In this document: in pieces, positions 1,786 through 20,926 of the stretch | How positions within the stretch are numbered: the first letter of the stretch is position 1 | How the letters are laid out: each line of letters begins with the position of its first letter | Translations under genes and position numbers: made by a program | Virus record (IMG/VR): IMGVR_UViG_3300005253_000361 | Coordinates: 32,001-96,000 of that record | Strand: one strand, 5' to 3' | DNA: 64,000 nucleotides | Source: a virus | Notes under the pieces: model-generated | Databases searched by the model: none | Told to the model about the DNA's origin: nothing | The model's input: only the letters and a program-made list of their open reading frames with translations

Positions 1786-2421
1786 CTAGCGGGTCCTGCG
1801 GAGCCATCCTTTATACAGGGGGCTACCCATGAACTTCCGGGTAATCTGGATCAGAATCTCGTGATCGTTCATCAGGTTCTGGGGCCAATCGCCAGGGCGG
1901 TAGCGCTTGATCGGCACCGGTGAGATCCGGTGGAGGATGTGGTGGAGGAATTCGTGGATCACGATCTCGTCACCGAGCTGCCACACGTACACCTCAGCTA
2001 GCTCATCCGAAAGGCTCCCGGGGGTGTTGAATCCAATCAGGATGAGGCACTCAAAGTCCTGGACGACATCCCGGAGAAAGTTCTGCCCAAAGATCTTTAC
2101 CGCCACCGCCTCGAAGTCCACGAACCGCAGCTGACGCAGTACGAGCCGGTCGGGCATCTCGACACCGGGGAACGCACTGAACAGGAGTCGGATGAGCTGC
2201 CCGTACCGTTCCGCATCGGGGGTGGGGAAGCTGGGATCGTACTCGAGGTAGCCGAAATCGCCGAGCGGTAGCCGGGCCAGTTCAACCCCCGAGAGCGGGG
2301 CGCTGTACTGCGGAGCGGGTGGGGCCGCGGCCGCCGCAAGGCTGGCCGGCAGACACGCGAGAAGCGTAAGGGCCGGCAGCAGATTTTTGCACGTTCGTGT
2401 CATCAGAATCACCTGGTACAA
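1786..2421 (-). CDS. secreted protein with HEXXH zinc-metallopeptidase-like motif
   Basis: signal peptide LLPALTLLACLPASLAAAA; IVIHEFLHHILH; true start may be a few codons downstream. Confidence 0.6.
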   Translation of the reverse strand: MYQVILMTRTCKNLLPALTLLACLPASLAAAAAPPAPQYSAPLSGVELARLPLGDFGYLEYDPSFPTPDAERYGQLIRLLFSAFPGVEMPDRLVLRQLRFVDFEAVAVKIFGQNFLRDVVQDFECLILIGFNTPGSLSDELAEVYVWQLGDEIVIHEFLHHILHRISPVPIKRYRPGDWPQNLMNDHEILIQITRKFMGSPLYKGWLRRTR

Positions 2422-2454
2422 AGATAACGATCGGGGAGGGGGGGAGACAACGAA

Positions 2455-2631
2455 CTACTCCCCGGGCCGCGTACTTTCTGTGGCGCAATCTACCGACACC
2501 GCGATCTTGCAGGCATCCACTCGCCCGACCGCATCGAGCTGATCAGCTACTGCCCGATCCTCACGGCGGCGTAACCACCTATGCCACATGCACGGCCTCC
2601 AGTCGGTTACGCCCTTCTTGAAGCGCGCCAT
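2455..2631 (-). CDS. hypothetical protein
   Basis: MARFKKGVTDWRPC...; ATG follows GAGGG just after the metallophosphoesterase stop. Confidence 0.4.
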   Translation of the reverse strand: MARFKKGVTDWRPCMWHRWLRRREDRAVADQLDAVGRVDACKIAVSVDCATESTRPGE

Positions 2632-2635
2632 CCCT

Positions 2636-4045
2636 CTATCGGTCCAGCTGGAGACCGGTGTTGTCAGTCGCGATCTCGACGTTGTGGACGAACATCGCGG
2701 CCTGACCACGTTCCTGGCTCCACAGGTAGGCCTCCGCACCCCGGTAGCTCTTGTAGCCCATCCCGTTTGCCCAGGCCGAAGGTGCCGACAGGGTCGGCAT
2801 GATCCGGGTCACGACTCCGTAGGCGTCGTCATACAGGACGTGGGTGGTGCCCTTCCGGTGGTGCTTATCACCGATGTGGAACTCGCAGTATCGAGCCTGG
2901 GCCCATAGCTGCCGGGCCTCGGTCGCCATGATCTCCCCGTAGTGCTTCTGGTTCACAGCACTTTCCCGGCCGTGCGTGAACCCCAAGAGGGTGTTGCCGT
3001 ACAGGAGGTACTTACGAGGGCTGGCCGAATTGTCCACCTGGACGTCCTCGACCCGGTCGTACGCGACCTCCAGGACCTCGCCGAGAGCGAAGCTCAGAAG
3101 CGGGTCGTGGTTGCCCGGGATCACTTTGACGATCACGGGAGCAATAGCACGGCACCGGTCAATGGCCCACCGGTTGAGCCGCTGCCCCTCCCGAAACATC
3201 TTCTGGTGCCGGGTGTCCATGTCCTGGGGGGTGCCGTCGGCCGTGGTGCCGTGGATGTTGTCTGAGTTGAAGAAGTCGTTGCCGGCGACCCAGAGGATCT
3301 GGTCCACGTCGAACCTGGAAGCCTTGGCCAGCAGGTCCTCGACCGCCTCCCGGAACATGCGGCGCTGGATCGTGAGGTCCCAGTCCGCGCCAGTCTCTTC
3401 CGCCCACGCGAGGCTGCAGAGGTGGAAGTCCGCCAGGTGCATCTCCAGCAGGTGGGGTTCGTCATACTGCTGCACCGCCGACTGGCGCTGGAACCATTCG
3501 GTGTCCCGAGTCGCCAGATCAGCCAGGATGTCAGCCTTAGCCTGATCGGCGAAGACCTGCACTCGCTCGATGGGGCGCTTGAGCCCGAACTTGGCATAGA
3601 CCTGCCAGTTGTCCGCCGGCACGAGCTCATCGCCGATCTTGGCCGTGACGGTCCAGACGTTCTCCTTGAAGTCCGTGATCTGGTAGGTCTCGAGATCATG
3701 AGCACAGCCGCGGTCGCGGGCATGCGCCAGGAGCTCCTCAATGTTTGTGATGTTGGCACTTCGGCTGGTCAGCACGACCGACCCGTCCGGAGCTACGGTT
3801 CGCTCAAGCTTTGGACCCTTGTTGATACTCTCCCGGATACCGTCCGACAGTAGAGGGCCGACGGTCTCGTCCCGAATGAGATCGATCAACTTGAGCCGCA
3901 CCGCCTTGGGGGTGCGCTCGGGGTTGCGGAAGATTGGTGCGAGCTCCTCTGCTGCAGCAACGAGCGACTCAGCGTCCCGAACGGTCTCCCATTCACGCTT
4001 GATCTGGTCGAGCTGCCCAGAGGATTCCCAGGACTTCATTCCCAT
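2636..4045 (-). CDS. calcineurin-like metallophosphoesterase (phage type) with N-terminal extension
   Basis: motifs ADFH, AGNDFF, PGNHD, FTHG, GDKHH in the canonical order. Confidence 0.85.
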   Translation of the reverse strand: MGMKSWESSGQLDQIKREWETVRDAESLVAAAEELAPIFRNPERTPKAVRLKLIDLIRDETVGPLLSDGIRESINKGPKLERTVAPDGSVVLTSRSANITNIEELLAHARDRGCAHDLETYQITDFKENVWTVTAKIGDELVPADNWQVYAKFGLKRPIERVQVFADQAKADILADLATRDTEWFQRQSAVQQYDEPHLLEMHLADFHLCSLAWAEETGADWDLTIQRRMFREAVEDLLAKASRFDVDQILWVAGNDFFNSDNIHGTTADGTPQDMDTRHQKMFREGQRLNRWAIDRCRAIAPVIVKVIPGNHDPLLSFALGEVLEVAYDRVEDVQVDNSASPRKYLLYGNTLLGFTHGRESAVNQKHYGEIMATEARQLWAQARYCEFHIGDKHHRKGTTHVLYDDAYGVVTRIMPTLSAPSAWANGMGYKSYRGAEAYLWSQERGQAAMFVHNVEIATDNTGLQLDR

Positions 4046-7854: not shown

Positions 7855-9009
7855 TTATGCTGTCGGTTGTTGGCGAATTGCGTCTTCTGGAGATTGAGCC
7901 CGAGCCAAGTGCTGCTGGATCGCCGCCATGGAGGTCCCGTTACCCTCAACTACACCGGCATACTCGTCAGCCTCACGCGCGGCCACAGGAAAGAACCGCA
8001 GAAACAGATCCCTCACCTGCTCGGGGCCCGGGCCTTCAATCTCCCAACGCTGATCTATGCGTCCGGCACGCACCAGCGGCGCCGGTAGAAGGTCTGCATC
8101 GTTGGCGGTGATAACCAGTAGCCGCCCCTCGGACGCGAGCGGCCCATCTATCGTGTTGAGCAGCCCTGCCAGCGTGACGCTCGTGTCGGTGCCGAAGTCG
8201 ATCTTCTCGATGTCCTCCAGCACCACCAGTGATCGCCCCGGCAACTGCGCCATGGCGCGAGCCAACGTGGCGTCATTGAAGTCATCCCCCTGCGACAGCG
8301 TGAGCACATACAGGGGCATTTGGTAGTGGCCGGCGATCGCCTGGACGAGCGAAGACTTGCCGTTTCCAGGGGGCCCCACGAGCAGGTATCCACGCCGATA
8401 CGGCAAACCCCGTTCCACGTGCCACGATCGAGCGTTCCGGAACCAATCAACATCATCGACGATCTCGTCCATCAGACCGGGGCGCAGCACTACCGATTCG
8501 AGTGGTCGCGGTTCGCCGACACGGATCTGTGACCATCCACCGTTCTGGTTATTGATGTACGCGACCTGCTTGCCGCGGCGGCGCAACATTGCCGCATCGA
8601 CCACGTCGTGCACGAGGGCTCGAATCGGGGACGGATCACGTCCCAGCGCTCGCAGGGTGATGGTCCGAGCCTTGGCGCCGGCATAGCCAACCTCTTCGAG
8701 AGTCTGGTGAAGAAGACACCAACGATTCTCGTAACGGAACACGTGCACGCCAAGGCCGGGCTCGAGCACCGCACGCGGCTCGTCTCGTTCGCCCTCGTAA
8801 GCCACGAACCCCGACAGCCTCCGGCAGCTACGGCCGTAGCTGGTCTCGGCGAGCCACTCGCCCATCCAACGCACGAACTCGGTGTCCATCGTGTAGAAGG
8901 ACGCGGTAAAGAATCTATCGAACACGTAGCGGGGCAGGTAGCGCACCGCAGCGGCTGCGGCACCGAGCGCCATGAGGTACAGACCGCCCTCGAAGAACTG
9001 GTTCTCCAT
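7855..9009 (-). CDS. Bcs1-like membrane-anchored AAA+ ATPase
   Basis: N-terminal TM NQFFEGGLYLMALG; PGLGVHVFRY; RPLESVVL; RGLPYRRGYLLVGPPGNGKSS (Walker A); LEDIE (Walker B); GLLNTIDG; RAGRID. Confidence 0.85.
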   Translation of the reverse strand: MENQFFEGGLYLMALGAAAAAVRYLPRYVFDRFFTASFYTMDTEFVRWMGEWLAETSYGRSCRRLSGFVAYEGERDEPRAVLEPGLGVHVFRYENRWCLLHQTLEEVGYAGAKARTITLRALGRDPSPIRALVHDVVDAAMLRRRGKQVAYINNQNGGWSQIRVGEPRPLESVVLRPGLMDEIVDDVDWFRNARSWHVERGLPYRRGYLLVGPPGNGKSSLVQAIAGHYQMPLYVLTLSQGDDFNDATLARAMAQLPGRSLVVLEDIEKIDFGTDTSVTLAGLLNTIDGPLASEGRLLVITANDADLLPAPLVRAGRIDQRWEIEGPGPEQVRDLFLRFFPVAAREADEYAGVVEGNGTSMAAIQQHLARAQSPEDAIRQQPTA

Positions 9010-9980
9010 TACGCCGTCTCTTTCTTCTTCTCGAACATCTTCGTGTAGTCCATCATGGGCCAGAACTGTCCCGCTACTCGGCCCGGGATCTTGTCGTAGG
9101 TGAATGGGAGCAGCCAGGGGTCCGGCTCGACGTGCACGATGTAACGGTGCTGGGTCTCGACGGAGCCGGCGTGCACGGTGAAGGCAGGCGTCACCACCTT
9201 GGCCCACCCGTGGCAGACATCCCACGCCATCGGGAGACTCAGCAGCTGGATCGTCGCCTTGCCGCCTCCGGGAGTGATCTCCTCCATGATCCGGATCCAT
9301 TCCTCGGCCCGGTTGATCGTGGCGCCACACTGGAGTTGACAGGTCAGGTGGAACATCACCCGGGCGCTCGCGTACCGGAGCATGTTGTTCGTGGCCGGAT
9401 GGGCCTTCACCTGCAGTACCTCTACAGGACGCTCCGGGGGATTCGCAATACTGTAGGGGCCGCCCACGTAGGGCAGCTCCAGCGCGCCAGGGGTGTTCTG
9501 GGCCGACTGCCAGATGGGGTCGCAGTACTCCGGCCAGTGCTGGTCAAAAAATCCGACACAACAAGGCGGGAAACCCAATAGATCTCCAATGGCGTTGTGG
9601 TTGGACTCCTCATGGGCTGCCTCGAAGGCATCGAGATTTGCATCATCGGGCGACACCACGGTGAACCAGGAGAAGTTCGGGTCACCCTCACGGAGCGGTG
9701 CGTGCCGGCGGTGGCTGAACCCATCGCTGGGGCCGACCGTAGTGAGCCGGCGCCACTTGAGTCCGTACCGCGCGAGTTTCTCGTACATCCTGTCACCGCC
9801 CACGTTCGGGATGTGGCAGGTACCGCAGGCACGAACACCATCGGCGGCCGTCTTGAGCTCCGCTTCCCAGCAGACACTGGAGGCCAGCTTGAAGGCCGGA
9901 CCCCAGTAGTCGCGCGCCTCGGAGGAGTGGTAGGTGATGCGGGTGAAGCTCGGGGCTTCGAAGTTCGGTAGGAGCTTCAT
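9009..9980 (-). CDS. Cys-rich protein with DUF483-like motif
   Basis: IGDLLGFPPCCVGFF and FHLTCQLQC; start reassigned to ATG 9980. Confidence 0.55.
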   Translation of the reverse strand: MKLLPNFEAPSFTRITYHSSEARDYWGPAFKLASSVCWEAELKTAADGVRACGTCHIPNVGGDRMYEKLARYGLKWRRLTTVGPSDGFSHRRHAPLREGDPNFSWFTVVSPDDANLDAFEAAHEESNHNAIGDLLGFPPCCVGFFDQHWPEYCDPIWQSAQNTPGALELPYVGGPYSIANPPERPVEVLQVKAHPATNNMLRYASARVMFHLTCQLQCGATINRAEEWIRIMEEITPGGGKATIQLLSLPMAWDVCHGWAKVVTPAFTVHAGSVETQHRYIVHVEPDPWLLPFTYDKIPGRVAGQFWPMMDYTKMFEKKKETA

Positions 9981-10312
9981 CGGAGCCTCGCCAACCACAC
10001 AACCTTGCACGCGATGTGTAGGAACTGGTCTTCGTGAACGTTGATCCGGTTCTCGCACTTGGCGAAGTCGATCAGCCAATGCACCACCGTCTCAGCCGCA
10101 CCGAGATAAACGTTGCTGGTGATCGCCCACACGACACCGCCGTGAATGAGAGCGTGAGAGGATAGCCAGTAGGGCCAGCAAAGCGTGCAGGTTGCCCCCG
10201 GCGGTGTCGTGGTTCTGTTGTGTCGGTTCTTGCCCTTCGCCATCGCGTCGGACTGTAGGACGAAGTCCGCCAGGGCGTGCCCGATCAGTAGCGCGAAGAA
10301 TGTCTCGATCAT
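9977..10312 (-). CDS. DUF3307-like membrane protein
   Basis: GHALADFVLQ, SHALIHG, HWLIDFAK, DQFLH motifs. Confidence 0.8.
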   Translation of the reverse strand: MIETFFALLIGHALADFVLQSDAMAKGKNRHNRTTTPPGATCTLCWPYWLSSHALIHGGVVWAITSNVYLGAAETVVHWLIDFAKCENRINVHEDQFLHIACKVVWLARLR

Positions 10313-10316
10313 TCGC

Positions 10317-10619
10317 CTAAACCTCCAGAGTCTCGGTCCAGTCCGACGGCAGCCGGGGCAACAGCTCATCCCTCAGCTCCCTATAGCTTTCCAGCGCGAC
10401 CGAATAGAGCCACTCCCGGCCGACAGGATCTCCGTAGGTCATCACAAGAGGCGATCCGTCTGCGCAGAAGGTGTTCTGGATGATCTTTTGCTGCAGGTAC
10501 ACCACCTGACCCAGCAGACGGATCGTTTGGTCTCGGTCGCGCAGGTCCATCTCAGCCTCCATCACACTGTCGATGGGGGTTGGTCCTGATTCTTGCCAAT
10601 CTTCTCGAGTTAGGATCAT
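10317..10619 (-). CDS. hypothetical protein
   Basis: GGAG RBS, ATGA overlap with the upstream ORF. Confidence 0.6.
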   Translation of the reverse strand: MILTREDWQESGPTPIDSVMEAEMDLRDRDQTIRLLGQVVYLQQKIIQNTFCADGSPLVMTYGDPVGREWLYSVALESYRELRDELLPRLPSDWTETLEV

Positions 10620-10810
10620 TGCTTGCTCTCCGGGTGAGGTAGAACAACCACCTCTTTGTAGACGATGTACTCGGGTAAGCCGGTCCAGCCGCAGGGCCAA
10701 CAGATCACGTCACCGCTGAACTGGATGTCGCTGCTGTTCAGATGGTCGAAGGTCTCCTCGTACACCTCGGTGCTGTCGCACTCCGGACAGTGGTACTTGC
10801 CGTCAGCCAT
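10616..10810 (-). CDS. small zinc-ribbon protein
   Basis: MADGKYHCPEC...CWPCG; overlaps the radical SAM stop. Confidence 0.6.
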   Translation of the reverse strand: MADGKYHCPECDSTEVYEETFDHLNSSDIQFSGDVICWPCGWTGLPEYIVYKEVVVLPHPESKQ

Positions 10811-13319
10811 TTGAATCTCCGTGGTCGTCGTAGTTGCCGTGCGGGACGTTGGCGTGCTCCAGTGGGTTCTTCTGGTGAGCCGCGTCCGCGTGGTCGCCGT
10901 GGTCGTCGTAGTTGCCGTGGGCCACATTCGCGTGGGCGGGATCGTTGGGATCGACAAGCTTCAGTTGGCAAGGGTTGCCGACCGGCGCATCCTCAGTCCG
11001 GACGAACTCAGAGTTCTTCGCCTCGCCTCGCCAGGCCGAGGGACGATACGTGTTGGCTTTCCGCAGCCAGCGGAACGGATCCCAGGGCGGTTCGTTCTGT
11101 TGGATCGAGTGGTAGAGACCATTGGCGTCGAACCGGTGCGCCACCTGGTCAAGTGTCGTGAGATTCGGGATGGTCCGGTGGAGATGGTCCGCTACCGCCT
11201 GATAGAGGCCGGCCCAGCCACGACAGAAGCGGGTGCGGTTGCGCCAGTCACCATCGATCGCGTGACCGTTGCAGTGGCCCGTGCAGACTGCCCACCAGCG
11301 GCACACCTGATCGCCGTCACGTCCATCCACACCGCCGAGGCATCCACCGTGCTCATGCGAGACGCCCCGCAGTATCTCGTAGCGAGCCTCGGAGAACTTC
11401 TTGTCCTCGGCTACCTGGTACGGGATCCCCCCGGCCGCATACAAATGTTCGCAAACTCCGATTGCCGAGTCCTCCTGGATGGTCCGTTCGGCAGCCGTGT
11501 GGAGAGGATCGCATTGGGTCCGAACGCATGTAAATTGGCCGCACCCGAGCAACCCGTCCATCGTTTCCGCGATGGCGGGAAACTGGTAACCCCGACTCAG
11601 ACTCCACGGCACAAACTCTGCCCAGAAGGCTGCCATATCGGTTTCGGAAAGCTCCCAGTCAGAGCGCTCCGGCTCGGTATCGATATGGGCGGGGTTGAGA
11701 CGTGGATTGCGAATACCGTGGTCGGCGAGCCAGTCGATGAACCGCTTCAACTCATCGATCTTCCGACGGTTCTGCCCCGGCACCAGACCCGGGCCGGCGT
11801 TAGCCTTGGTCAGGCAGATGATCAGACCGGGGGGCCGGTGCTCCCTGCAGAGCCGCAGGAGTGTCCGGAGCGTGGCGGCTGTGCCCTCCAGGGTGGTGCG
11901 TAGGGTGTTGCCCATCTTACGAACATCGTTCAGGCGCCCCCAGCCGTCGATCGAGAGCCCCACGTTGACGTTGTACCGCTTGAACATGGCCATGTGGTCG
12001 TCGTCGACCAGCACGCCGTTCGTCTGGATCGCGGCCTTGCCGAACCGCTCGTGGTTGATCCGAAAGATCTCCTCGAGGTCGGCCTTCTTGATCAGAAGAG
12101 GTTCGCCGCCGTGCGCGGTAGCTACCGCGGCGCCGCCCCGATTCTCTTCCTCCCAATCCCACTGGGCATTGATTGCCCGAATGGCCGCGTGGATATCGTA
12201 GTCGTGGGCCTTCTTGACGTTGCCGAGATCCCTGGCGGTGTTCTGGTAACAGTCCACCGAAAGAAACCCTCCAGCCACAAAGGTCTTACTGGTCGTCTCG
12301 ACATCATAAACTTCAGGGTCTCGCTTGTGTCCCATAGGCTCGATGGCCGTAATCTGAGCCCGGGGCGTCTTCGAAACTGCACCCGTAATCGCCACTTTGC
12401 GTGTGAGCGCCGGCCGACAAAGAGAAGCGAACCGTGCAACCTCAGGTCGGCCGCCCCGCATATAGACCCACCATGAATCGTCCGCCTTCTGGGCGATCCG
12501 GACATCGAACCCTAACTTCTCCCAGCAGTACCGAACCTCGTCAATAGCCTCCTGCTCCTTTTGGCAGATGCCAAGACCATTTCGGGTGCCTTCAGCGTCA
12601 AACATGCCTGCGAGCCACCCCTTAATGAATGGAGTACTCCTACCCATCGGAGGGGTTTCGGCGAGATCCATTAACGCGGTCAGGTCATCATTCCGGTGCA
12701 CGCGAGTAAGGTGACTGTAGGAAAGTTCGGCCCCCGTATCCTTTCGCTTGTGGTGCACGCGAGAAAGTTCAACGCCGAAAAGAGATTTGGCGTACAACTC
12801 TACTCGGTCCAGGAGTTCTTGATCCTTCGAATAGACCTTGAAAGTGCTTACGGGACCGCGCTTGCATACGTAATCCCCCCAGCTGCCGTCCCCAAAACTG
12901 ACCCCAGATAGCCACCCAGCTCGATAGTCGCTGTCCTGAGTAATGTCCTCCTTAACGGGGTCACACAAATGCAGGAACGCATCGCCTACCCGTAGGTCCC
13001 TCGTCCGGACCACACAATGGCGGTCCTGCCGCTTAACGAGCCACTCATGATCCGGTGTCGACTTGACCTCCCCTGCAGTCGTGGTGATGCGAATCAACCG
13101 CTCACGCTTGCGGATGAGGCGAATAACTTCCGTATCAACGTACCGTCGATACTTCTTGCCCTCCACAGCATCGAGTTCCCAGGAAACCAGGCGGTCCCCA
13201 ACCTCGACAGACTCGATGGGTTTCCAACTACCGTCGGTCAACAGCATCAGTGTGCCCTTGGCCAGACAGTGGCTACACGACAGGTTGCAGGCGCGCGTCA
13301 ACTTGGTTGATTGCGGCAA
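10803..13319 (-). CDS. radical SAM/SPASM-domain enzyme (peptide-maturase type), intein-containing
   Basis: after splicing CNLSCSH/CYQ gives CxxxCxxC; HGGEPLL, IQTNG, GLSIDG; Cys-rich SPASM (C..C, GVCE, CRWWAVCTGHC, RFC); TTG start with AGGAGGGGG RBS. Confidence 0.9.
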   Translation of the reverse strand: MPQSTKLTRACNLSCSHCLAKGTLMLLTDGSWKPIESVEVGDRLVSWELDAVEGKKYRRYVDTEVIRLIRKRERLIRITTTAGEVKSTPDHEWLVKRQDRHCVVRTRDLRVGDAFLHLCDPVKEDITQDSDYRAGWLSGVSFGDGSWGDYVCKRGPVSTFKVYSKDQELLDRVELYAKSLFGVELSRVHHKRKDTGAELSYSHLTRVHRNDDLTALMDLAETPPMGRSTPFIKGWLAGMFDAEGTRNGLGICQKEQEAIDEVRYCWEKLGFDVRIAQKADDSWWVYMRGGRPEVARFASLCRPALTRKVAITGAVSKTPRAQITAIEPMGHKRDPEVYDVETTSKTFVAGGFLSVDCYQNTARDLGNVKKAHDYDIHAAIRAINAQWDWEEENRGGAAVATAHGGEPLLIKKADLEEIFRINHERFGKAAIQTNGVLVDDDHMAMFKRYNVNVGLSIDGWGRLNDVRKMGNTLRTTLEGTAATLRTLLRLCREHRPPGLIICLTKANAGPGLVPGQNRRKIDELKRFIDWLADHGIRNPRLNPAHIDTEPERSDWELSETDMAAFWAEFVPWSLSRGYQFPAIAETMDGLLGCGQFTCVRTQCDPLHTAAERTIQEDSAIGVCEHLYAAGGIPYQVAEDKKFSEARYEILRGVSHEHGGCLGGVDGRDGDQVCRWWAVCTGHCNGHAIDGDWRNRTRFCRGWAGLYQAVADHLHRTIPNLTTLDQVAHRFDANGLYHSIQQNEPPWDPFRWLRKANTYRPSAWRGEAKNSEFVRTEDAPVGNPCQLKLVDPNDPAHANVAHGNYDDHGDHADAAHQKNPLEHANVPHGNYDDHGDSNG
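12252..13268 (-). mobile_element. intein (339 aa) with LAGLIDADG homing endonuclease in radical SAM gene
   Basis: block A CLAKGT, block B STPDHEWL, WLSGVSFGDG and WLAGMFDAEG, block F VYDVET, ends GFLSVD before +1 Cys. Confidence 0.9.
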
Positions 13320-13344: not shown

Positions 13345-13716
13345 TCAGTCGGCGCGAACTCGAAATGGCGTCTGCTTCTCCAGATAGATAGTGTGCTGGT
13401 GGCCCGGAATACCGGGCTCGATAGTCGGGTAGAGCGCGAACGCCTGAAGGACCTCGCAGGTCATCCCGACCGGATAGCGCCGCAAGAACCACCTGGGGGC
13501 GAAGCGTTGCTTAACCGCCTGCCACCAATCAGTTGGCCACTCGCAGTGGACCTCCTCGACAGTCTTCCCCAGCACCCGCATCTCAACGTCAACAACGAGC
13601 TCCTCGAGCTGCAGGTCCCAGTGGGCAGTCGGCAGGTCAAAAAGACGCCCGTGCAGAATCTTCCGTTGGTGAAAGCGCAAGACGTCGAGGACGACCTTTT
13701 CGGTCTCGATGTTCAT
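13345..13716 (-). CDS. hypothetical protein
   Basis: AGGAGGGGG RBS; directly upstream of the radical SAM gene. Confidence 0.7.
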   Translation of the reverse strand: MNIETEKVVLDVLRFHQRKILHGRLFDLPTAHWDLQLEELVVDVEMRVLGKTVEEVHCEWPTDWWQAVKQRFAPRWFLRRYPVGMTCEVLQAFALYPTIEPGIPGHQHTIYLEKQTPFRVRAD

Positions 13717-13738
13717 AGGTAGGTTCCCCCTCCTTTGA

Positions 13739-14005
13739 TCAGCCCCTCAGCCGACCTCGAGTAGCCCTCGCTCGCTCCAGCTGAGCGGACAAGATGTCGA
13801 GCCACTCCTGGGCCCGCTCAAGAGTCATACGGCGAGTGGCCATCACCTCGCCATTGACGATGTACTTGTCAAAGCCCCCCTCGGGGACCGGCACGTTCCA
13901 CTCGAGGTCGACCTTGACCGCCGAGCCGGTCTCACCCCAGGCCTCGATCGGGACGAGATTCGGGCCGTGAATATCGTCGAGTTCTACGAGATGTGCAGAT
14001 GCCAT
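13739..14005 (-). CDS. hypothetical protein
   Basis: AGGAGGGGG RBS; first gene after the promoter copy at 14060-14100. Confidence 0.7.
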   Translation of the reverse strand: MASAHLVELDDIHGPNLVPIEAWGETGSAVKVDLEWNVPVPEGGFDKYIVNGEVMATRRMTLERAQEWLDILSAQLERARATRGRLRG

Positions 14006-14059
14006 ATAGGTTCCCCCTCCTTTTTCCCTCGGTCGGCCGGTCCCTCAACCGACGCAGCT

Positions 14060-14100
14060 ACTCTGCTAAATCACCGCGCCACTGTCCAGTGAACTCTCAC
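14060..14100 (-). promoter_or_regulatory. putative late promoter (copy before radical SAM operon)
   Basis: GTGAGAGTT-cac-TGGACA-N17-CAGAGT in an intergenic gap. Confidence 0.6.
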
Positions 14101-14102
14101 CG

Positions 14103-14336
14103 TCAGGAAGTTTTTATTTCCTCGCCCGTACGCTCGTTCAGCATCACGGTATTGCCGCAGACCGGGCAGCTGAACCGATCGCTCGTCTGGGGATCCCGAT
14201 GGGGTGGTACCCCGGTGAACATGTGGGCATAGGCGAGCCCGCCCCGGATGCCCTCGCAAGCAGCCCGCCAGACGGTTTCGCCGCAAGCCGCGCAGTCGAT
14301 GAAATCCTCCTTACGGAACAGCACTTCTGTCTCCAT
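14103..14336 (-). CDS. small zinc-finger protein
   Basis: CAAC...CPVC; AGGAGGGGG RBS. Confidence 0.65.
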   Translation of the reverse strand: METEVLFRKEDFIDCAACGETVWRAACEGIRGGLAYAHMFTGVPPHRDPQTSDRFSCPVCGNTVMLNERTGEEIKTS

Positions 14337-14346
14337 CTTCCCCCTC

Positions 14347-15747
14347 CTAGACCCCGATCTCGGTCGGGTCGTCCACGTAGGCCACTGACAGATTGTCGTC
14401 GTGGTTGTCGTGGGCGGTGTCGGTGTGTGGTGTCGCGTCCTGGTGCGTTACATCGTCGTGGTCGGTGTAATTTGAGTGGGCGGTGTCGTCGTGGTCCGCG
14501 TGGTTCGTATGGGCGGTGTCGTTGTGATCGTCGTGGTTGATGTGGGCTACATCCGCGTGATCCTGGTGGTTGTCGTGGGCGACATCCGTATGGTCGTCAT
14601 GGTTGGTGTGCGCGGTGTCGGTGTGGTCGGTGTGGTTCACGTGCGCGACGTCGTCGTGATCGCTGTAGTTGATGTGGGCGACGTCAGAGTGGTCCGTATA
14701 GTCCGCGTGGGCCGTGTTGTTGTGGGATGAGGTGTCGGTATGGGCCACATCGGTGTGGTCGGTGTAGTTGGCGTGTGAAGCATTAGTGAAGTCGTCGTAG
14801 TCGGAGTGCGCGACATCGCTGTGGTCGGAGTGGTCCGAGTGGGCTAGGTCCCCGTGATCGGTGTAATCGTCATAATCGGTATAATCCTCGTGGAATGGAA
14901 CATCGTCCCAATCATCGTGGTACGTCTGGTCGTGGCTATTGTCCAGATTGTCGTGCGCTACGTCGCTATGATCGTTCCAGTCGTCATGAACGACATCAAC
15001 ATGATCGTCCCAGTCGTCATAAGCGGTGTCGGTGTGGTTATTGATGTTGCTGTGCGCGACGTTGTTGTGATCGGACCAGTTGATGTGAGTGACGTCGCTG
15101 TGGTCCGAATGGTTCGTGTGGGCGGTGTCGGAGTGATCGGTGTGGTTGTCGTGCACCGTATCGGTGTGCTGGGTCGAGGTGTTGTCCACGTAGGCTGTAT
15201 CATCGTGATCCGAGATATCAGTATGGGAGACGTCATCGTGATCGGTGTAGTTGCTGTGGGCCGTGTCGGAATGGTCGCTGTAATTTATGTGAGCGACATC
15301 GGAGTGGTCTGAACCGGTGTTGTCGTCATGCGCGACATCGGCGTGGTCACTGTGGTTGTCGTGGGCCACGTCAGAATGATCTGAATGATTGTCGTGGGCC
15401 GCGTCGCCATGGTCGCTGTAGTTGGTGTGCGCGACGTCAGCGTGCCCAATTACCTCCCGGCCCGACTCGCCAATCCAACGCCAGCGACCGTTGCCGGTGT
15501 CGTCCTCGACCCAATAACTACCTTGTACCCCGTCGCTGTGCGACTGGATATCGATCGGGAGACGGCGCTCATCCCCAGTGGCGCTAACGTAGTGCCAGTA
15601 ATCCCCTTCTACCCAGTAGCTGCCCACGACTGCCGGACTCGGAGTCGAGACGTACTCGGCCGTCTGGTATTGCCACTCCGAGGCAACCTCGTCGATGAAG
15701 CACCAGTAGTCCCCCTCGACCCAGAACGATCCAGCAGTCTTAGCCAT
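14347..15747 (-). CDS. His/Asp-rich tandem-repeat protein (tail module; candidate radical SAM substrate)
   Basis: N-terminal ~100 aa with 3x GS[FY]WVE[GD]D, then 31 units of consensus HxD[VT]AHx[ND][HYW]xD. Confidence 0.85.
   Translation of the reverse strand: MAKTAGSFWVEGDYWCFIDEVASEWQYQTAEYVSTPSPAVVGSYWVEGDYWHYVSATGDERRLPIDIQSHSDGVQGSYWVEDDTGNGRWRWIGESGREVIGHADVAHTNYSDHGDAAHDNHSDHSDVAHDNHSDHADVAHDDNTGSDHSDVAHINYSDHSDTAHSNYTDHDDVSHTDISDHDDTAYVDNTSTQHTDTVHDNHTDHSDTAHTNHSDHSDVTHINWSDHNNVAHSNINNHTDTAYDDWDDHVDVVHDDWNDHSDVAHDNLDNSHDQTYHDDWDDVPFHEDYTDYDDYTDHGDLAHSDHSDHSDVAHSDYDDFTNASHANYTDHTDVAHTDTSSHNNTAHADYTDHSDVAHINYSDHDDVAHVNHTDHTDTAHTNHDDHTDVAHDNHQDHADVAHINHDDHNDTAHTNHADHDDTAHSNYTDHDDVTHQDATPHTDTAHDNHDDNLSVAYVDDPTEIGV
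14395..15444 (-). repeat. 31 degenerate ~33-nt coding tandem repeats
   Basis: 11-aa periodicity over residues 102-451; codons diverged between units. Confidence 0.9.
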
Positions 15748-15756
15748 CCCGACCCC

Positions 15757-16647
15757 CTATACGGTGACCCACTTGTTCGCCCCAATCGGAGCGATCGCTC
15801 CGGCGAGTCCCCTGAGGTTACGGCTCGAATCCACGACGGTCGTGGCACCGATCTGCAGACTGTCCGCCTCGAGCGTCGCGATACCGGTAATGTTGAAGGC
15901 GCCTGTCGCCCAATGGGCTGTAAGCGCGATCGAACCGCCGGCCCGAAGGAAGGCCGCGCTACTGAGACTGTCGAGCGTGTCAGCGTCCAAGCCGGTCTCG
16001 TTGACCGCGATCGTGATTTGATTCCCGGGGTTATCCGGGGTGATGACGATTTGGTTTCCAGCCACCAAGTTGACGTCCCCGCCTGAATTCGACACCCCGT
16101 CGATACTCGCGAGCGCGCCCGCTTGGGCCGCCGTTACGCTGTGGGGGTTCGAGGTCGAGGACACGTGAGGGTCGACATACCCCTTGGTCGTGAGGTCGTT
16201 CGACCCTGAAGGTGTGGCGCCCCGGACGATCGCGTAGGCCGAATCGCCCGCGTTGCGTGCCGCCACGACACCGGCCGCCTCCCGCTGGAACCACACATCG
16301 AGCGCAGAACCAACGCCGGCACCGAACGCAATACCGCTGCGGGACGCGTCAAGCTGCACCACCGGATTCGCATCACCGGCCGCCCCGTAGAGACTGGCAT
16401 CCACACCGACGTAGAAAACATCAGACGCAATCGGGATCCAGTCGGCCCCGTCGAAGCTGAAGTAGAAGATGTCCTCGTCGGTCGCCATGTACTGCTGCGA
16501 TACAGCTGGGGCCGCCGGTAGGTTCACCACGGGTCCGTAGTCCGCCTCGGTCATCGCGAGGTAGATGAAGTCGTTCAGGTCGGAGGCACGCGTGGTGGTG
16601 CCGACCGACACCTCATAGAGCGACAGATCACGGACAGGTGTTGCCAC
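15757..16647 (-). CDS. short tail fibre/adapter protein (paralog of 19190-20926)
   Basis: shares MATPVRD.SLY.VS.G.TTRAS, SQQY.ATD, QREA..VVA.RNA and H.SS..NPH.V.A.Q.GA with the long fibre. Confidence 0.75.
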   Translation of the reverse strand: MATPVRDLSLYEVSVGTTTRASDLNDFIYLAMTEADYGPVVNLPAAPAVSQQYMATDEDIFYFSFDGADWIPIASDVFYVGVDASLYGAAGDANPVVQLDASRSGIAFGAGVGSALDVWFQREAAGVVAARNAGDSAYAIVRGATPSGSNDLTTKGYVDPHVSSTSNPHSVTAAQAGALASIDGVSNSGGDVNLVAGNQIVITPDNPGNQITIAVNETGLDADTLDSLSSAAFLRAGGSIALTAHWATGAFNITGIATLEADSLQIGATTVVDSSRNLRGLAGAIAPIGANKWVTV

Positions 16648-18875: not shown

Positions 18876-19193
18876 CTACGCTGGGTTAAGGTCGGTTTCG
18901 TCTTCGGAGGTAGTGCCGGCGCCGAGCTTCCCGTCAGCCACCAGCTGGTCCAGCACGACCTGGCGCAGTCTTGGCTTGGCCCCAGAGAAGTCCTTTCGAT
19001 TTATGGCCCGGATCAACACCTTGGCCTCCGCACCATGGTAGGTATGCTGGGTCGGACGCTCCAGGGCGTCGTGGGTCTCGATCGACACCAGGTACTGATC
19101 CTCCGCGGGGGCGAAACGGAGACGGAAATCCACCACCTCTACGGTCGAGAGATCCACCATCAGAGGGGTGTCGAGTACTAGGGTTGCGCTCAT
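18876..19193 (-). CDS. small tail-module protein
   Basis: ATGA-coupled to the long fibre gene. Confidence 0.65.
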   Translation of the reverse strand: MSATLVLDTPLMVDLSTVEVVDFRLRFAPAEDQYLVSIETHDALERPTQHTYHGAEAKVLIRAINRKDFSGAKPRLRQVVLDQLVADGKLGAGTTSEDETDLNPA

Positions 19194-20926
19194 GCAGCCA
19201 ACTTCCTTTCGAGTTCGGCCACCTTGGCCTTGAGACGTCGGACCTCGGGTTCGAGCTTGTCGACACGAGGCATTAGTCGTTCAATGTCTGCTGTGTGCTC
19301 GTTGAATCCGGCCACCACCAGCGGTAGCACCTTGCTGTACTTCAGACCGAGGAACCCATCGGGGTCGGTATAGACCGCCTCAGGCAGAACCTTCTGAACG
19401 TCCTGCGCGATGAGGAACGCACGCCGTTGCCCTGCCGCCTTCGCGTCGAAGCGTTCCGATTCGATGAAGTACCCTGTCTCGGTGCGCAGCGTGCCGAGCT
19501 TACGGGTGGCGTCCACGATAGGCTCCAGGCCGGTCTTGAGACGCTCGTCCGAAACGGCCACCCACGCGGTCGCACCTAAGGTCAGGTCGACGCCACCCGA
19601 GCCTCCCGCGACGCAGCGAATCACATCGGCGGACACCTCGGTGAGATACGTGTTGCTGCCACCGTCGAGGTAGAGCTTCTTGGTGGACCCTAGCGACCAG
19701 TTCCCCATGACGCCACTGGTCTGTGCAGCCACGCGGAAGTACGCGGCCAAACCGCCACCGGTATAGATGTCGATGCGGTTGGCGCTGGACTCGGTGATGT
19801 ACGTGTCGCTGCCGCCGTCGAGGAAGAGCTTCTTCAACGGGTCTACTGACGCTGATTGGCGGAACTTCCAAATACCCGAAGTCGAGCTCACCATTACCGT
19901 TCCGCCGACTACAACTTGGTAGTTGTCTACGCTGGACTCGGTGATGTACGTGTCACCGCCGCCATCCAAGTAGAGCTTCTTGAGGGCCGACAGGTAGATG
20001 TCGTCGGTAAAGCTCCACTGGCCCGTGATGACCTCGGCAACCCCGACCTGCGGGACCCCAACAGCCGTGAGGTTGCCCGTGTGGACCAGAGTCCGGGTCG
20101 CGTCAGGCGTGATGGTCTCGTCGGCCGACAGGATGCCACTGAACTCGAGAAGCTGCGGATCACTACCGCCGGAGAACTTGAGCGCTCGCGCGTTGCCTGA
20201 CCAGCTGGTCGAGATCGATTTGTAATTCCCGGCCCCGTCCTCGTACACGTTGACCCCGATCAACCCGTACCCAGCCGTGAACTCCTGGATGCAGAAGTAG
20301 CTGCCGACCAGGATCCGGTCGTCCCGCAGGAGCGTGATGTCGGCCCCCGACATCTGAAGATCGCCCGTCATGATGCCGCCAGCCAGCGCGACAGCACCCG
20401 TCTGACCTGCCGACACCCCGTGCGGATTCGCGCCCGAGCTCGCATGGGTGTCATGGTGGCTCTTCGTCACGTAATCGTTGTCGCCGACCGGGGCGAGGCC
20501 GCGCATGATCCCGTAGGCACTGTTGGCGGCGTTACGGATCGCCACAACCTCGGTGGCCTCACGCTGGACGAAGGTGTCGTGCGCGTTCGAACCCCCTTGG
20601 CCGAACCCGACGGCTGTCCGGCTCGCGCTCAACTGGACCTTGGAATAGGTATCCGAGACGGCCCCGTAGAGATCCAGATCATCGCCCATCTGGACCTTGG
20701 TGCTCGCGATCGGCGTCAGGGTGCCGGCCTCGAGCGCCATGTAGAAGACCCCGCTGTCCGTGGCGAGATACTGCTGACTCACGGCGGGCGAACCCGGCCG
20801 GCTACCGTAGAGGCCGTAGTCGGTCTCGGTCAGGCTGAGGTAGAGAGCGTTGTTCTGATGGGATGCTCGGGTAGTGTTGCCCGGGCTAACTGTATAGAGC
20901 GATACGTCGCGAACCGGCGTGGCCAC
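19190..20926 (-). CDS. tail fibre with C-terminal intramolecular chaperone (peptidase S74)
   Basis: SDERLK autocleavage motif, LIAQDVQKVLPEAV, terminal coiled coil; 3x KKL[YF]LDGGx[DN]TYxTE internal repeat. Confidence 0.85.
   Translation of the reverse strand: MATPVRDVSLYTVSPGNTTRASHQNNALYLSLTETDYGLYGSRPGSPAVSQQYLATDSGVFYMALEAGTLTPIASTKVQMGDDLDLYGAVSDTYSKVQLSASRTAVGFGQGGSNAHDTFVQREATEVVAIRNAANSAYGIMRGLAPVGDNDYVTKSHHDTHASSGANPHGVSAGQTGAVALAGGIMTGDLQMSGADITLLRDDRILVGSYFCIQEFTAGYGLIGVNVYEDGAGNYKSISTSWSGNARALKFSGGSDPQLLEFSGILSADETITPDATRTLVHTGNLTAVGVPQVGVAEVITGQWSFTDDIYLSALKKLYLDGGGDTYITESSVDNYQVVVGGTVMVSSTSGIWKFRQSASVDPLKKLFLDGGSDTYITESSANRIDIYTGGGLAAYFRVAAQTSGVMGNWSLGSTKKLYLDGGSNTYLTEVSADVIRCVAGGSGGVDLTLGATAWVAVSDERLKTGLEPIVDATRKLGTLRTETGYFIESERFDAKAAGQRRAFLIAQDVQKVLPEAVYTDPDGFLGLKYSKVLPLVVAGFNEHTADIERLMPRVDKLEPEVRRLKAKVAELERKLAA

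Follow-up and report, generated by a model that had tools for sequence, protein, structure and literature searches.

The present analysis concerns a 64,000-nucleotide stretch of viral DNA (positions 32,001 to 96,000 of IMG/VR record IMGVR_UViG_3300005253_000361, a virus record of 117 kb), here called the window, with a G+C content of ~60–64%, and within it a gene for a protein of 466 amino acids (aa) whose long acidic tail is made of short repeats. Comparison of this tail with its homologues indicates that its selected unit is the aromatic-x-Asp/Asn triplet (an aromatic residue with Asp or Asn two positions further on), and neither the 11-residue unit in which the triplets are mostly arranged nor histidine as such. 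A radical S-adenosylmethionine (SAM) enzyme of the SPASM type is encoded ~1 kb downstream of the repeat gene, and we consider it quite probable that this enzyme acts on the repeat protein. The explanation that best covers the evidence as a whole, and that in our assessment is evenly balanced between right and wrong, is that the tail would be cross-linked by the radical SAM enzyme in the form of three-residue cyclophanes.

The repeat gene and its parts, with the evidence for each, are as follows:

14347–15747, minus strand: aromatic-x-Asp/Asn repeat protein (HisRep), 466 aa (open reading frame (ORF) list; 124 homologues at E <= 1e-3)
15448–15747, minus strand: N-terminal module (N-module), residues 1–100, with three GS[FY]WVE[GD]D repeats (sequence, AlphaFold2, 189 matching representative clusters at E <= 1e-3)
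14386–15447, minus strand: repeat tail, residues 101–454, with 88 aromatic-x-[D/N] triplets, mostly in 11-residue units of 5+3+3 (motif counts)
14350–14385, minus strand: conserved C-terminal end, residues 455–466, ...PTEIGV, a predicted strand (AlphaFold2, alignment A1)

The gene is a single minus-strand ORF, the plus-strand frame at the same place being riddled with stops. The protein matched no family in Pfam, PHROG or NCBIfam (the last at E <= 0.1), and a megablast of 15 kb of the window against phage records returned no match. Residues 104–442 consist of 25 regular 11-residue units, D-[VT]-A-H-x-[ND]-[HYW]-x-D-H-x, plus three longer ones; the irregular, triplet-built centre noted in the preliminary description of this DNA is present and begins at residue 286 (HEDYTDYDDYTD). 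Across the regular units, the two main His sites (positions 1 and 6), where His had been said to give way only to other aromatic residues, read H24/Y1 and H24/F1, and the third aromatic site (position 9), said to alternate mostly between His, Tyr and Trp, does so in 21 of 25 units (H10, Y8, W3), the exceptions being I2, T1 and A1. The 88 triplets begin with 68 His, 15 Tyr, 4 Trp and 1 Phe. Within residues 101–466, Asp or Asn stands at +2 from 68 of 69 His, 15 of 15 Tyr, 4 of 4 Trp and one of two Phe residues, compared with a baseline of ~33% of all repeat-region positions; the +2 residue after His is Asp in 47 cases, Asn in 21 and Gln in one. Gaps between successive His triplets measure 3 (21 cases), 5 (26) and 6 (13) residues.

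Lys occurs solely at residue 3, Cys at 16, Met at 1 and Arg at 61, 62, 88, 90 and 97, and the stretch free of these four residues that had been described earlier extends over residues 98–466. The tail (101–466) holds 94 acidic and no basic residues, with 19% His and 25% Asp, and contains not a single His-x-His motif. At the DNA level, the reported divergence of codons is borne out: nucleotide identity among the 25 units averages 0.60 (maximum 0.85), identical residues share the same codon in 952 of 1712 comparisons, and Tandem Repeats Finder gives 66–77% matches at periods of 33, 66 and 99 nucleotides (nt), the sole periods with arrays longer than 29 nt. The DNA copies of the repeat are old, since identity between units is low and the longest exact word repeated among them is 16 nt.

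A protein search of a 5.8-billion-protein collection yielded 124 homologues at E <= 1e-3, mostly of ~300 aa, and the statistics that follow refer to the 120 homologues listed. Asp or Asn is found at +2 from 2824 of 2904 His residues (97%), 149 of 342 Tyr (44%), 57 of 168 Phe (34%) and 44 of 126 Trp (35%), compared with 0–9% for each of the non-aromatic residues save Cys (4 of 16); after His, the +2 residue is Asp in 2650 cases, Asn in 174 and another residue in ~80 (including Ser in 4). These tails are built of H-x-D units and lack the 11-residue period of the window protein, the gaps between H-x-[D/N] motifs being 3 (540 cases), 4 (693), 5 (831) and 6 (305) residues. Since this spacing varies from 3 to 6 residues, it is the triplet, with linkers of 0–3 residues, rather than a fixed period that is conserved. 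Free replacement of His by non-aromatic residues was looked for in the homologues and not seen: at the midpoint of 6-residue gaps between His triplets, an aromatic residue is followed by Asp or Asn at +2 in 51 of 64 cases, versus 17 of 241 for a non-aromatic one.

The most telling evidence on this point is provided by natural members of the family dominated by Phe or Tyr. One viral locus (L033, ORF 2163–3200) combines the same three-repeat N-module with a tail of P-F-x-N-[TV] repeats (41 F/Y/W-x-D/N versus 6 H-x-D/N triplets), and downstream of it a DUF483-methyltransferase gene and a radical SAM gene are still present. Homologue P0168 has 14 F/Y/W triplets (mostly Tyr by eye) versus 3 His triplets, and P0158 and P0245 likewise have more F/Y/W triplets (by eye mostly Phe) than His triplets. 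Across 95 distinct triplet-rich frames from the viral loci described below, the F/Y/W share has a median of 0.17 and a maximum of 0.87, with Tyr slightly overstated by the inclusion of a few N-module Y-I-D motifs. The 120 homologues and the Phe-/Tyr-dominated members thus support the earlier suggestion that selection acts on aromatic-x-D/N rather than on histidine, and the substitution analysis pins down aromatic-x-D/N as the exact motif.

Some variations in the architecture of the tails were recorded alongside these counts. Some phages (viral loci L047–L052, L054, L062 and L063) have three to five tandem triplet-rich paralogues upstream of one enzyme, and in one of these loci (L047 859–2484) the triplets are combined with collagen triple-helix repeats (85.7 bits). 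A homologue of 339 aa (P0008) has a Hint/intein-type insertion mid-way in its His/Trp-x-D tract, as seen from precomputed Pfam matches and from the sequence.

The second line of evidence comes from the genes that accompany the repeat gene, which in the window are the following:

10803–13319, minus strand: radical SAM/SPASM enzyme, 838 aa as encoded (Pfam Radical_SAM, 37.7 bits, cut-off 29.5)
12252–13268, minus strand: intein, enzyme residues 18–356, LAGLIDADG (Pfam LAGLIDADG_3 and Intein_splicing; NCBIfam model of intein-containing radical SAM proteins)
10803–10940, minus strand: C-terminal tail of the enzyme with H-x-[N/D], Y-x-D and H-x-D motifs of its own (sequence)
9009–10079, minus strand: DUF483-like, Cys-rich partner protein, 356 aa, LGFPPCC..., HLTCxxxC (tblastn, alignment A3, Atlas neighbours in DUF483 clusters)

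A scan of viral contigs with the single repeat protein confirmed no relative, and an alignment-based scan gave 14 viral loci, to which Thermus phage phiMa adds a fifteenth. Of these 15 loci, 14 have a radical SAM homologue after the repeat gene (27–34% identity, E 1e-23 to 1e-46), and 12 have a homologue of the 356-aa Cys-rich protein next in order (tblastn), two of the three misses being contig ends. The repeat gene, the enzyme gene and the DUF483-like partner gene form a conserved trio. A search with the enzyme alignment returned 122 viral relatives, of which 80 were kept; these loci are partly shared with the first set or are near-duplicates, and the resulting counts do not represent independent events. 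An ORF on the enzyme's strand with a density of 10 or more H-x-[D/N] per 100 aa is present in 73 of the 80, and the DUF483 partner gene in 76. The seven loci lacking such an ORF comprise five that are truncated on the upstream side, the Phe variant L033, and L028, in which nothing was seen.

The association extends well beyond viruses. Bacterial and archaeal contigs, taken from one genome per species, contained 171 relatives of the enzyme (80 kept), which, going by record titles, span Acidobacteriota, Actinomycetota, Chloroflexota, Planctomycetota, Myxococcota, Cyanobacteria, Bacillota, Bacteroidota and others. Of the 80 genome loci, 50 contain a frame whose density reaches 12 or more aromatic triplets per 100 aa (a few of these frames being the enzyme's own tail), and many of the remaining loci carry a short H-x-D tract at the extreme C-terminus of a large ORF that ends just before the enzyme; bacterial tracts of this kind can end proteins of more than 1000 aa. 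When the threshold is set at five or more HxD per 60 aa, tracts are found on the enzyme's strand in 63 of 80 genome loci versus 4 of 80 on the opposite strand, with the reservation that the same-strand count may include the enzyme tail, and in none of 473 control frames of the window. The sequence context of the tracts beside the enzyme can vary widely among genome loci, examples being PPHSDQPPLPGH, repeated many times in L119 4400–4915, and the VPHSDARVAD repeats of L144 1500–2408.

Alignment of 13 members of the enzyme family (A2) places the radical SAM motif CxxxCxxC at C12, C16 and C19, and the start of the cluster motif at residue 12 means that the enzyme has no N-terminal extension or recognition domain. 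The SPASM pattern C-x4-C ... C ... CxxCx5Cx3C ... C is invariant in the 13 sequences, with one insertion in the window copy; the invariant Cys residues of A2 are C245, C250, C270, C304, C307, C313, C317 and C333, and seven SPASM-pattern Cys are present. Searched against NCBIfam, all 13 members match the AmcB, YhhB, GrrM/OscB, FxsB, DynA and anaerobic sulfatase maturase families, 12 match XyeB and 10 match HxsB (weakly), with family E-values of 5e-23 at best. The window enzyme, with or without its intein part, reaches 58–59 bits for XyeB (cut-off 450), 56–57 for YhhB (445), 41–43 for FxsB (370) and 37–41 for AmcB (425). The closest solved relatives are the anaerobic sulfatase-maturating enzyme (anSME) 4k36 (79.6 bits) and the triceptide synthase ChlB 9gm3 (66.7 bits). 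By these matches, the enzyme is best placed among the SPASM enzymes that modify proteins and peptides, as a family that has not been named. Characterised enzymes among its nearest families abstract a hydrogen from a side-chain carbon.

Two further features of the enzyme deserve description. When the repeat protein is compared with its own genome, the C-terminal tail of the enzyme comes up as the second match, and the consensus HGDxHGDHTD recurs in this tail, in part or whole, in 13 of 13 aligned members; at least two HxD motifs are found in the last 60 aa of the enzyme in 61 of 76 viral versus 18 of 76 genome loci. Possible roles of this tail are those of a pseudo-substrate, a target of self-modification or a docking element. 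The other feature is the 339-aa LAGLIDADG intein, which lies inside the CxxxCxxC motif, begins with Cys18, ends in Val-Asp instead of the usual His-Asn and has as its +1 residue Cys357, the third cluster ligand; homology to intein-free relatives picks up again at residue 357, and none of the 12 aligned relatives has an intein. As to the DUF483-like partner, Pfam DUF483 is detected in 8 and a class I methyltransferase domain in 7 of 12 relatives, and neither on the window copy, whose true start is probably at residue 34. A model of this partner (pLDDT, the predicted local distance difference test score, 71.5) gave no Foldseek match at E <= 0.001, and the best VIA-align matches were to 2guk (Z 5.2, function-less annotation) and then to NleE (Z 4.1).

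AlphaFold2, supplied with a 38-row alignment, builds the N-module from beta hairpins (pLDDT 85–93 for residues 1–60), assigns no secondary structure to residues 102–454 (pLDDT ~43) and ends with a short strand at residues 462–465 (pLDDT 88 for the last block); P461 is invariant in alignment A1, and homologues end in QPTVV, PELIG and similar sequences. The mean pLDDT of the Atlas model of the whole protein is 0.38. A confident stable fold of the unmodified tail, named earlier as an observation that would speak against modification, was therefore not found by prediction in either model. The monomer prediction may be compatible with a trimeric or metal-dependent fold of the tail; a trimer prediction with three copies of residues 1–320 (score 0.00, mark 0.42) is counted neither for nor against binding. 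Searches of the Atlas with the N-module gave no usable match by features and a template-modelling score of at most 0.44 by structure. The best structural match of the whole-protein model, a beta-prism II lectin (Z 3.6 over 85 residues, root-mean-square deviation 3.7), is too weak for a fold to be named.

The three GS[FY]WVE[GD]D repeats of the N-module are present as described, at residues 6, 42 and 76, and had been proposed to form an attachment or an enzyme-recognition domain. The structural or attachment role looks like the one that stands, and a role in recognition is unlikely because the tracts that lie beside the enzyme in bacteria sit on unrelated large proteins, with 0–4 WVE-type motifs per tract frame and none in most. 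Of 70 N-module relatives whose tail measures 60 aa or more, 50 have triplet-rich and 20 triplet-poor tails, several of the poor ones being visibly Cys-rich. In P0123, P0124, P0147 and P0200, a Cys-rich end (..HHIAIHR..) takes the place of the triplet tract behind the WVEGD module, which suggests that the N-module carries exchangeable tips. Our reading is of a modular fibre-attachment element in the N-module, with the triplet tract forming a tip that can be exchanged.

The two fibre-like genes upstream place this element in a tail-fibre context:

15757–16647, minus strand: fibre-like protein, 296 aa, ending ...PIGANKWVTV, directly upstream of the repeat gene (ORF list, homologue fusions)
19190–20926, minus strand: tail fibre with C-terminal Peptidase_S74 chaperone domain (Pfam; many PHROG tail-fibre matches)

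The ~300-aa homologues of the repeat protein have an extra N-terminal segment of ~100 aa, ending ...PVGADKY/W, fused ahead of the WVEGD repeats, and in the window and many other loci a segment of this type is the C-terminus of a separate upstream gene; the 296-aa protein itself has a weak BLASTP match to residues 54–90 of homologue P0002 (E 0.005). In P0108 and P0115, the H-x-D tract is joined directly to a protein of ~540 aa, which in P0108 is homologous to the product of L007 7823–9415 (33% identity, E 6e-74), and the 847-aa ORF directly before the latter is taken for a putative tape measure. A possible kinship of P0108 with the window's 645-aa protein was dropped, as no similarity was found. 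PHROGs gave no tail annotation for the fused tail proteins and their neighbours. Overall, the repeat protein is probably a tail-fibre-associated phage protein, predicted to combine a beta-rich N-module of ~100 aa with a very acidic, probably unfolded tail of 366 aa.

We propose the following course of events. The tail would be a multi-site substrate of the radical SAM/SPASM enzyme encoded ~1 kb downstream, which would be active only once its intein has been spliced out and would work together with the DUF483-like partner. The enzyme would abstract a hydrogen from the beta-carbon of Asp or Asn, and this carbon would then be joined to the imidazole or aryl ring two residues upstream. Each triplet would in this way yield one three-residue cyclophane of the kind found in triceptides, to a maximum of 88 in one chain. 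The resulting fibre tip would be expected to be stiffened, resistant to proteases and possibly able to bind metal. Taken separately from the choice of substrate, a cyclophane product has in our view an even chance or slightly less. Among the conceivable chemistries it fits best, because the rule admits any aromatic residue at position 1 and any X2 but fixes X3 as Asp or Asn, and because a SPASM enzyme lies alongside. In a still broader and more tentative form, which we would not put at an even chance, the proposal is that phages and some bacteria possess leader-independent radical SAM/SPASM enzymes that, with a DUF483 partner, make dozens of cyclophanes on tail-fibre tracts.

The nearest precedent is provided by the triceptides (made by XyeB, YhhB, GrrM/OscB, FxsB, AmcB, ChlB, HaaB and HtkB). 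According to the accessible text of PMC11499958, their synthases act on aromatic1-X2-X3 by bonding the ring to the beta-carbon of X3; HaaB and HtkB form this link from His-C2, and HtkB takes Phe for His. The present system shares with them the repeated aromatic1-X2-X3 motif, in which position 1 can be taken by His, Phe, Tyr or Trp alike, and a radical SAM enzyme with CxxxCxxC and SPASM auxiliary-cluster Cys residues. It differs in several respects: the window enzyme falls below every named cyclophane-synthase cut-off; X3 is here always Asp or Asn; a DUF483 partner, usually with a methyltransferase domain, takes part in the gene set; and the candidate substrate is not a short leader-core peptide but a 466-aa tail-fibre-associated protein with 88 motifs, which in relatives is fused to tail proteins of at least 530 aa. 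Furthermore, the present system is phage-encoded, lies in a tail-fibre module and is described here from sequence.

A number of observations weigh against the cyclophane explanation. The enzyme is far below every NCBIfam cut-off and is as close to anSME as to the cyclophane synthases, and homology therefore leaves its chemistry unsettled. The methyltransferase domain on most partner proteins points to additional or different chemistry, and the window enzyme depends on the splicing of an intein with an unusual end. Thirty of the 80 genome loci fall short of the stricter threshold (a frame with 12 aromatic triplets per 100 aa), and a few (L136, L139, L162, L171) show no tract by eye. The tail of the Phe variant L033 matches Pentapeptide_3 (57.1 bits, cut-off 27) and Pentapeptide_4 (56.2 bits, cut-off 38), from which it follows that strictly pentad members could be beta-helices with aromatic residues stacked in the core. 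Metal ions are classically coordinated by His and Asp and can also be bound by Tyr. Finally, a different radical-SAM-dependent change (+8 Da) is reported on the His-x-Ser repeats of the effector of the HXS anti-phage system (PMC13128918, accessible text), and the published note on the present gene trio proposed DNA modification (PMC11437467, accessible text).

These points feed into alternatives of rather different weight. The most serious, which we nevertheless regard as unlikely, retains the tail as a radical SAM substrate and changes the reaction, to one of the "+C/-4H" type as in HxsA, an anSME-like oxidation, an epimerisation, or a cross-link combined with methylation by the partner. For this explanation the evidence from synteny and motif is equally valid, and so is the nearness of the enzyme to anSME, to which the weak HxsB matches of 10 of the 13 family members and the methyltransferase domain of 7 of 12 partners may be added. 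Its precedent is the +8 Da change made by radical SAM enzymes on the SHRSS motif of HxsA (PMC13128918, accessible text). The HXS system is indeed similar in that a protein with repeats of His-x-small residue is matured by radical SAM enzymes; it is, however, a bacterial defence with a change at a single site, as far as the accessible text of that paper goes, whereas the window holds a phage tail-fibre module, and HxsA has five basic His-Xaa-Ser repeats as opposed to 88 acidic Asp/Asn triplets. HXS also employs HxsB, HxsC and HxsD (same source), unlike the window cassette with its one radical SAM gene and DUF483 partner, in a comparison where HxsC and HxsD were not searched separately; the HxsB model scored 30.6 bits (cut-off 370) against the enzyme relative L007. 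What distinguishes the cyclophane explanation is that the exchange of His with Phe, Tyr and Trp together with a fixed Asp/Asn at +2 is the triceptide rule, and is less obviously needed by the other reactions. As for methylation, the window partner has no methyltransferase domain, and methylation would thus not be essential here unless supplied in trans.

An unmodified tail, acting as a metal-binding fibre segment in which His and Asp of three chains hold metals as in the T4 tip while the enzyme acts elsewhere, seems improbable to us. The abundance of His and Asp in a tail devoid of basic residues and the tail-fibre context agree with it, and the accessible text of PMC11705849 describes seven iron ions held via HxH in T4 gp37 and similar motifs in other fibres. 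In both fibres, a short His-rich motif recurs along the chain with a possible metal role; but the window tail has no His-x-His, its dedicated linked enzyme and the missing prediction of a folded needle have no counterpart in the T4 fibre as described there, and its His residues are exchangeable with Phe and Trp, which are unable to bind metals. The relative with 87% F/Y/W keeps the enzyme and partner, and the natural Phe-/Tyr-dominated variants make histidine metal binding insufficient as the sole explanation; moreover, the spacing ranges over 3–6 residues, and the conserved trio would be left unexplained. A pentapeptide-type or related beta-solenoid, in which the aromatic residue points into the core and substitution reflects packing and not an enzyme motif, is slightly more doubtful still. 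It gains from the L033 repeats, from a sub-threshold Pentapeptide_2 match of L049 3650–4927 and from the 5-residue H-x-D-x-x period of many homologues, but neither the window protein nor the 8 His-rich or mixed relatives tested gave a Pentapeptide match. The window unit is 5+3+3, without a strict 5-residue period, and gaps of 3, 4, 5 and 6 residues are all common in the family; AlphaFold2 leaves the tail without structure. Classical pentapeptide repeats carry Asp or Asn at -1 from the aromatic residue, and here it stands at +2. The linked enzyme would again be unexplained.

A last alternative, which we think very improbable, gives the radical SAM/DUF483 pair a target other than protein, such as DNA, and makes the repeat protein a bystander or metal donor. 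This idea stems from the "rSAM module" noted in Thermus phages Cumys and phiMa, for which DNA modification was guessed and two of three proteins were called unknown (PMC11437467, accessible text). The guess was made because relatives of the enzyme and of the DUF483 protein are reported to adjoin deazapurine genes in cyanobacteria (section 3.4 of that paper), and this adjacency is the main support for it. The adjacent phiMa_29, phiMa_28 and phiMa_27 match the window repeat protein, enzyme and DUF483-like protein, respectively (E 1.7e-28, 2.1e-46, 1.0e-35), the window system differing from the Thermus module by the intein in its enzyme and by a partner without the methyltransferase domain. Section 3.4, in its accessible form, makes no mention of His-x-Asp repeats or of a protein substrate. 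Against DNA as the target stand the nearest families of the enzyme, which are all peptide- or protein-modifying SPASM enzymes, the fact that the His-x-Asp tract is the sole feature common to otherwise unrelated upstream genes, and the presence of such a tract at the C-terminus of the enzyme in 61 of 76 viral loci.

Cross-linking by radical SAM enzymes is an established feature of small peptide natural products. In addition, one recently described bacterial defence effector is matured by radical SAM enzymes through chemistry still undefined in the accessible text of PMC13128918. Our literature search, whose coverage excludes most subscription journals, found no report of radical SAM modification of a phage fibre or virion protein. 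The inferred new element is the radical SAM maturation of repeated aromatic-x-X motifs on a virion-type protein, with dozens of sites, a new motif and a new partner. If the cyclophane explanation is correct, this would be the first enzyme-installed carbon–carbon cross-link in a virus particle protein, and a protein-scale branch of the chemistry of ribosomally synthesised and post-translationally modified peptides with an influence on how stiff and stable fibre tips are, or on how they bind metals or recognise hosts. If the tract is modified in any way, phage fibres would carry a hidden chemical layer that sequence- and structure-based prediction of host range ignores, and a leader-independent catalyst for dozens of sites per chain would be of interest to protein engineering. 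In that case, the His-x-Asp tracts beside the enzyme in many bacterial phyla would also represent a large, unnamed protein-modification system.

The remaining genes of this part of the window, identified from Pfam and the ORF list, are:

7855–9330, minus strand: BCS1-like AAA ATPase
9977–10369, minus strand: DUF3307 protein
13345–14336, minus strand: three small ORFs

The complete order on the minus strand is two fibre-like genes, the repeat gene, the three small ORFs, the radical SAM gene, the DUF3307 protein, the Cys-rich 356-aa protein and the BCS1-like ATPase. In the 15 related loci, tblastn gave no match to the BCS1-like ATPase, the DUF3307 protein, the three small ORFs or a 619-aa ORF, and these are for this reason not counted in the conserved cassette; the ATPase, the DUF3307 protein and the small ORFs look, from the sequence comparison, like window-specific additions. 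The two fibre-like genes (15757–16647 and 19190–20926) have near-identical N-termini (MATPVRD[LV]SLY...), with the Peptidase_S74 domain on the longer gene only.

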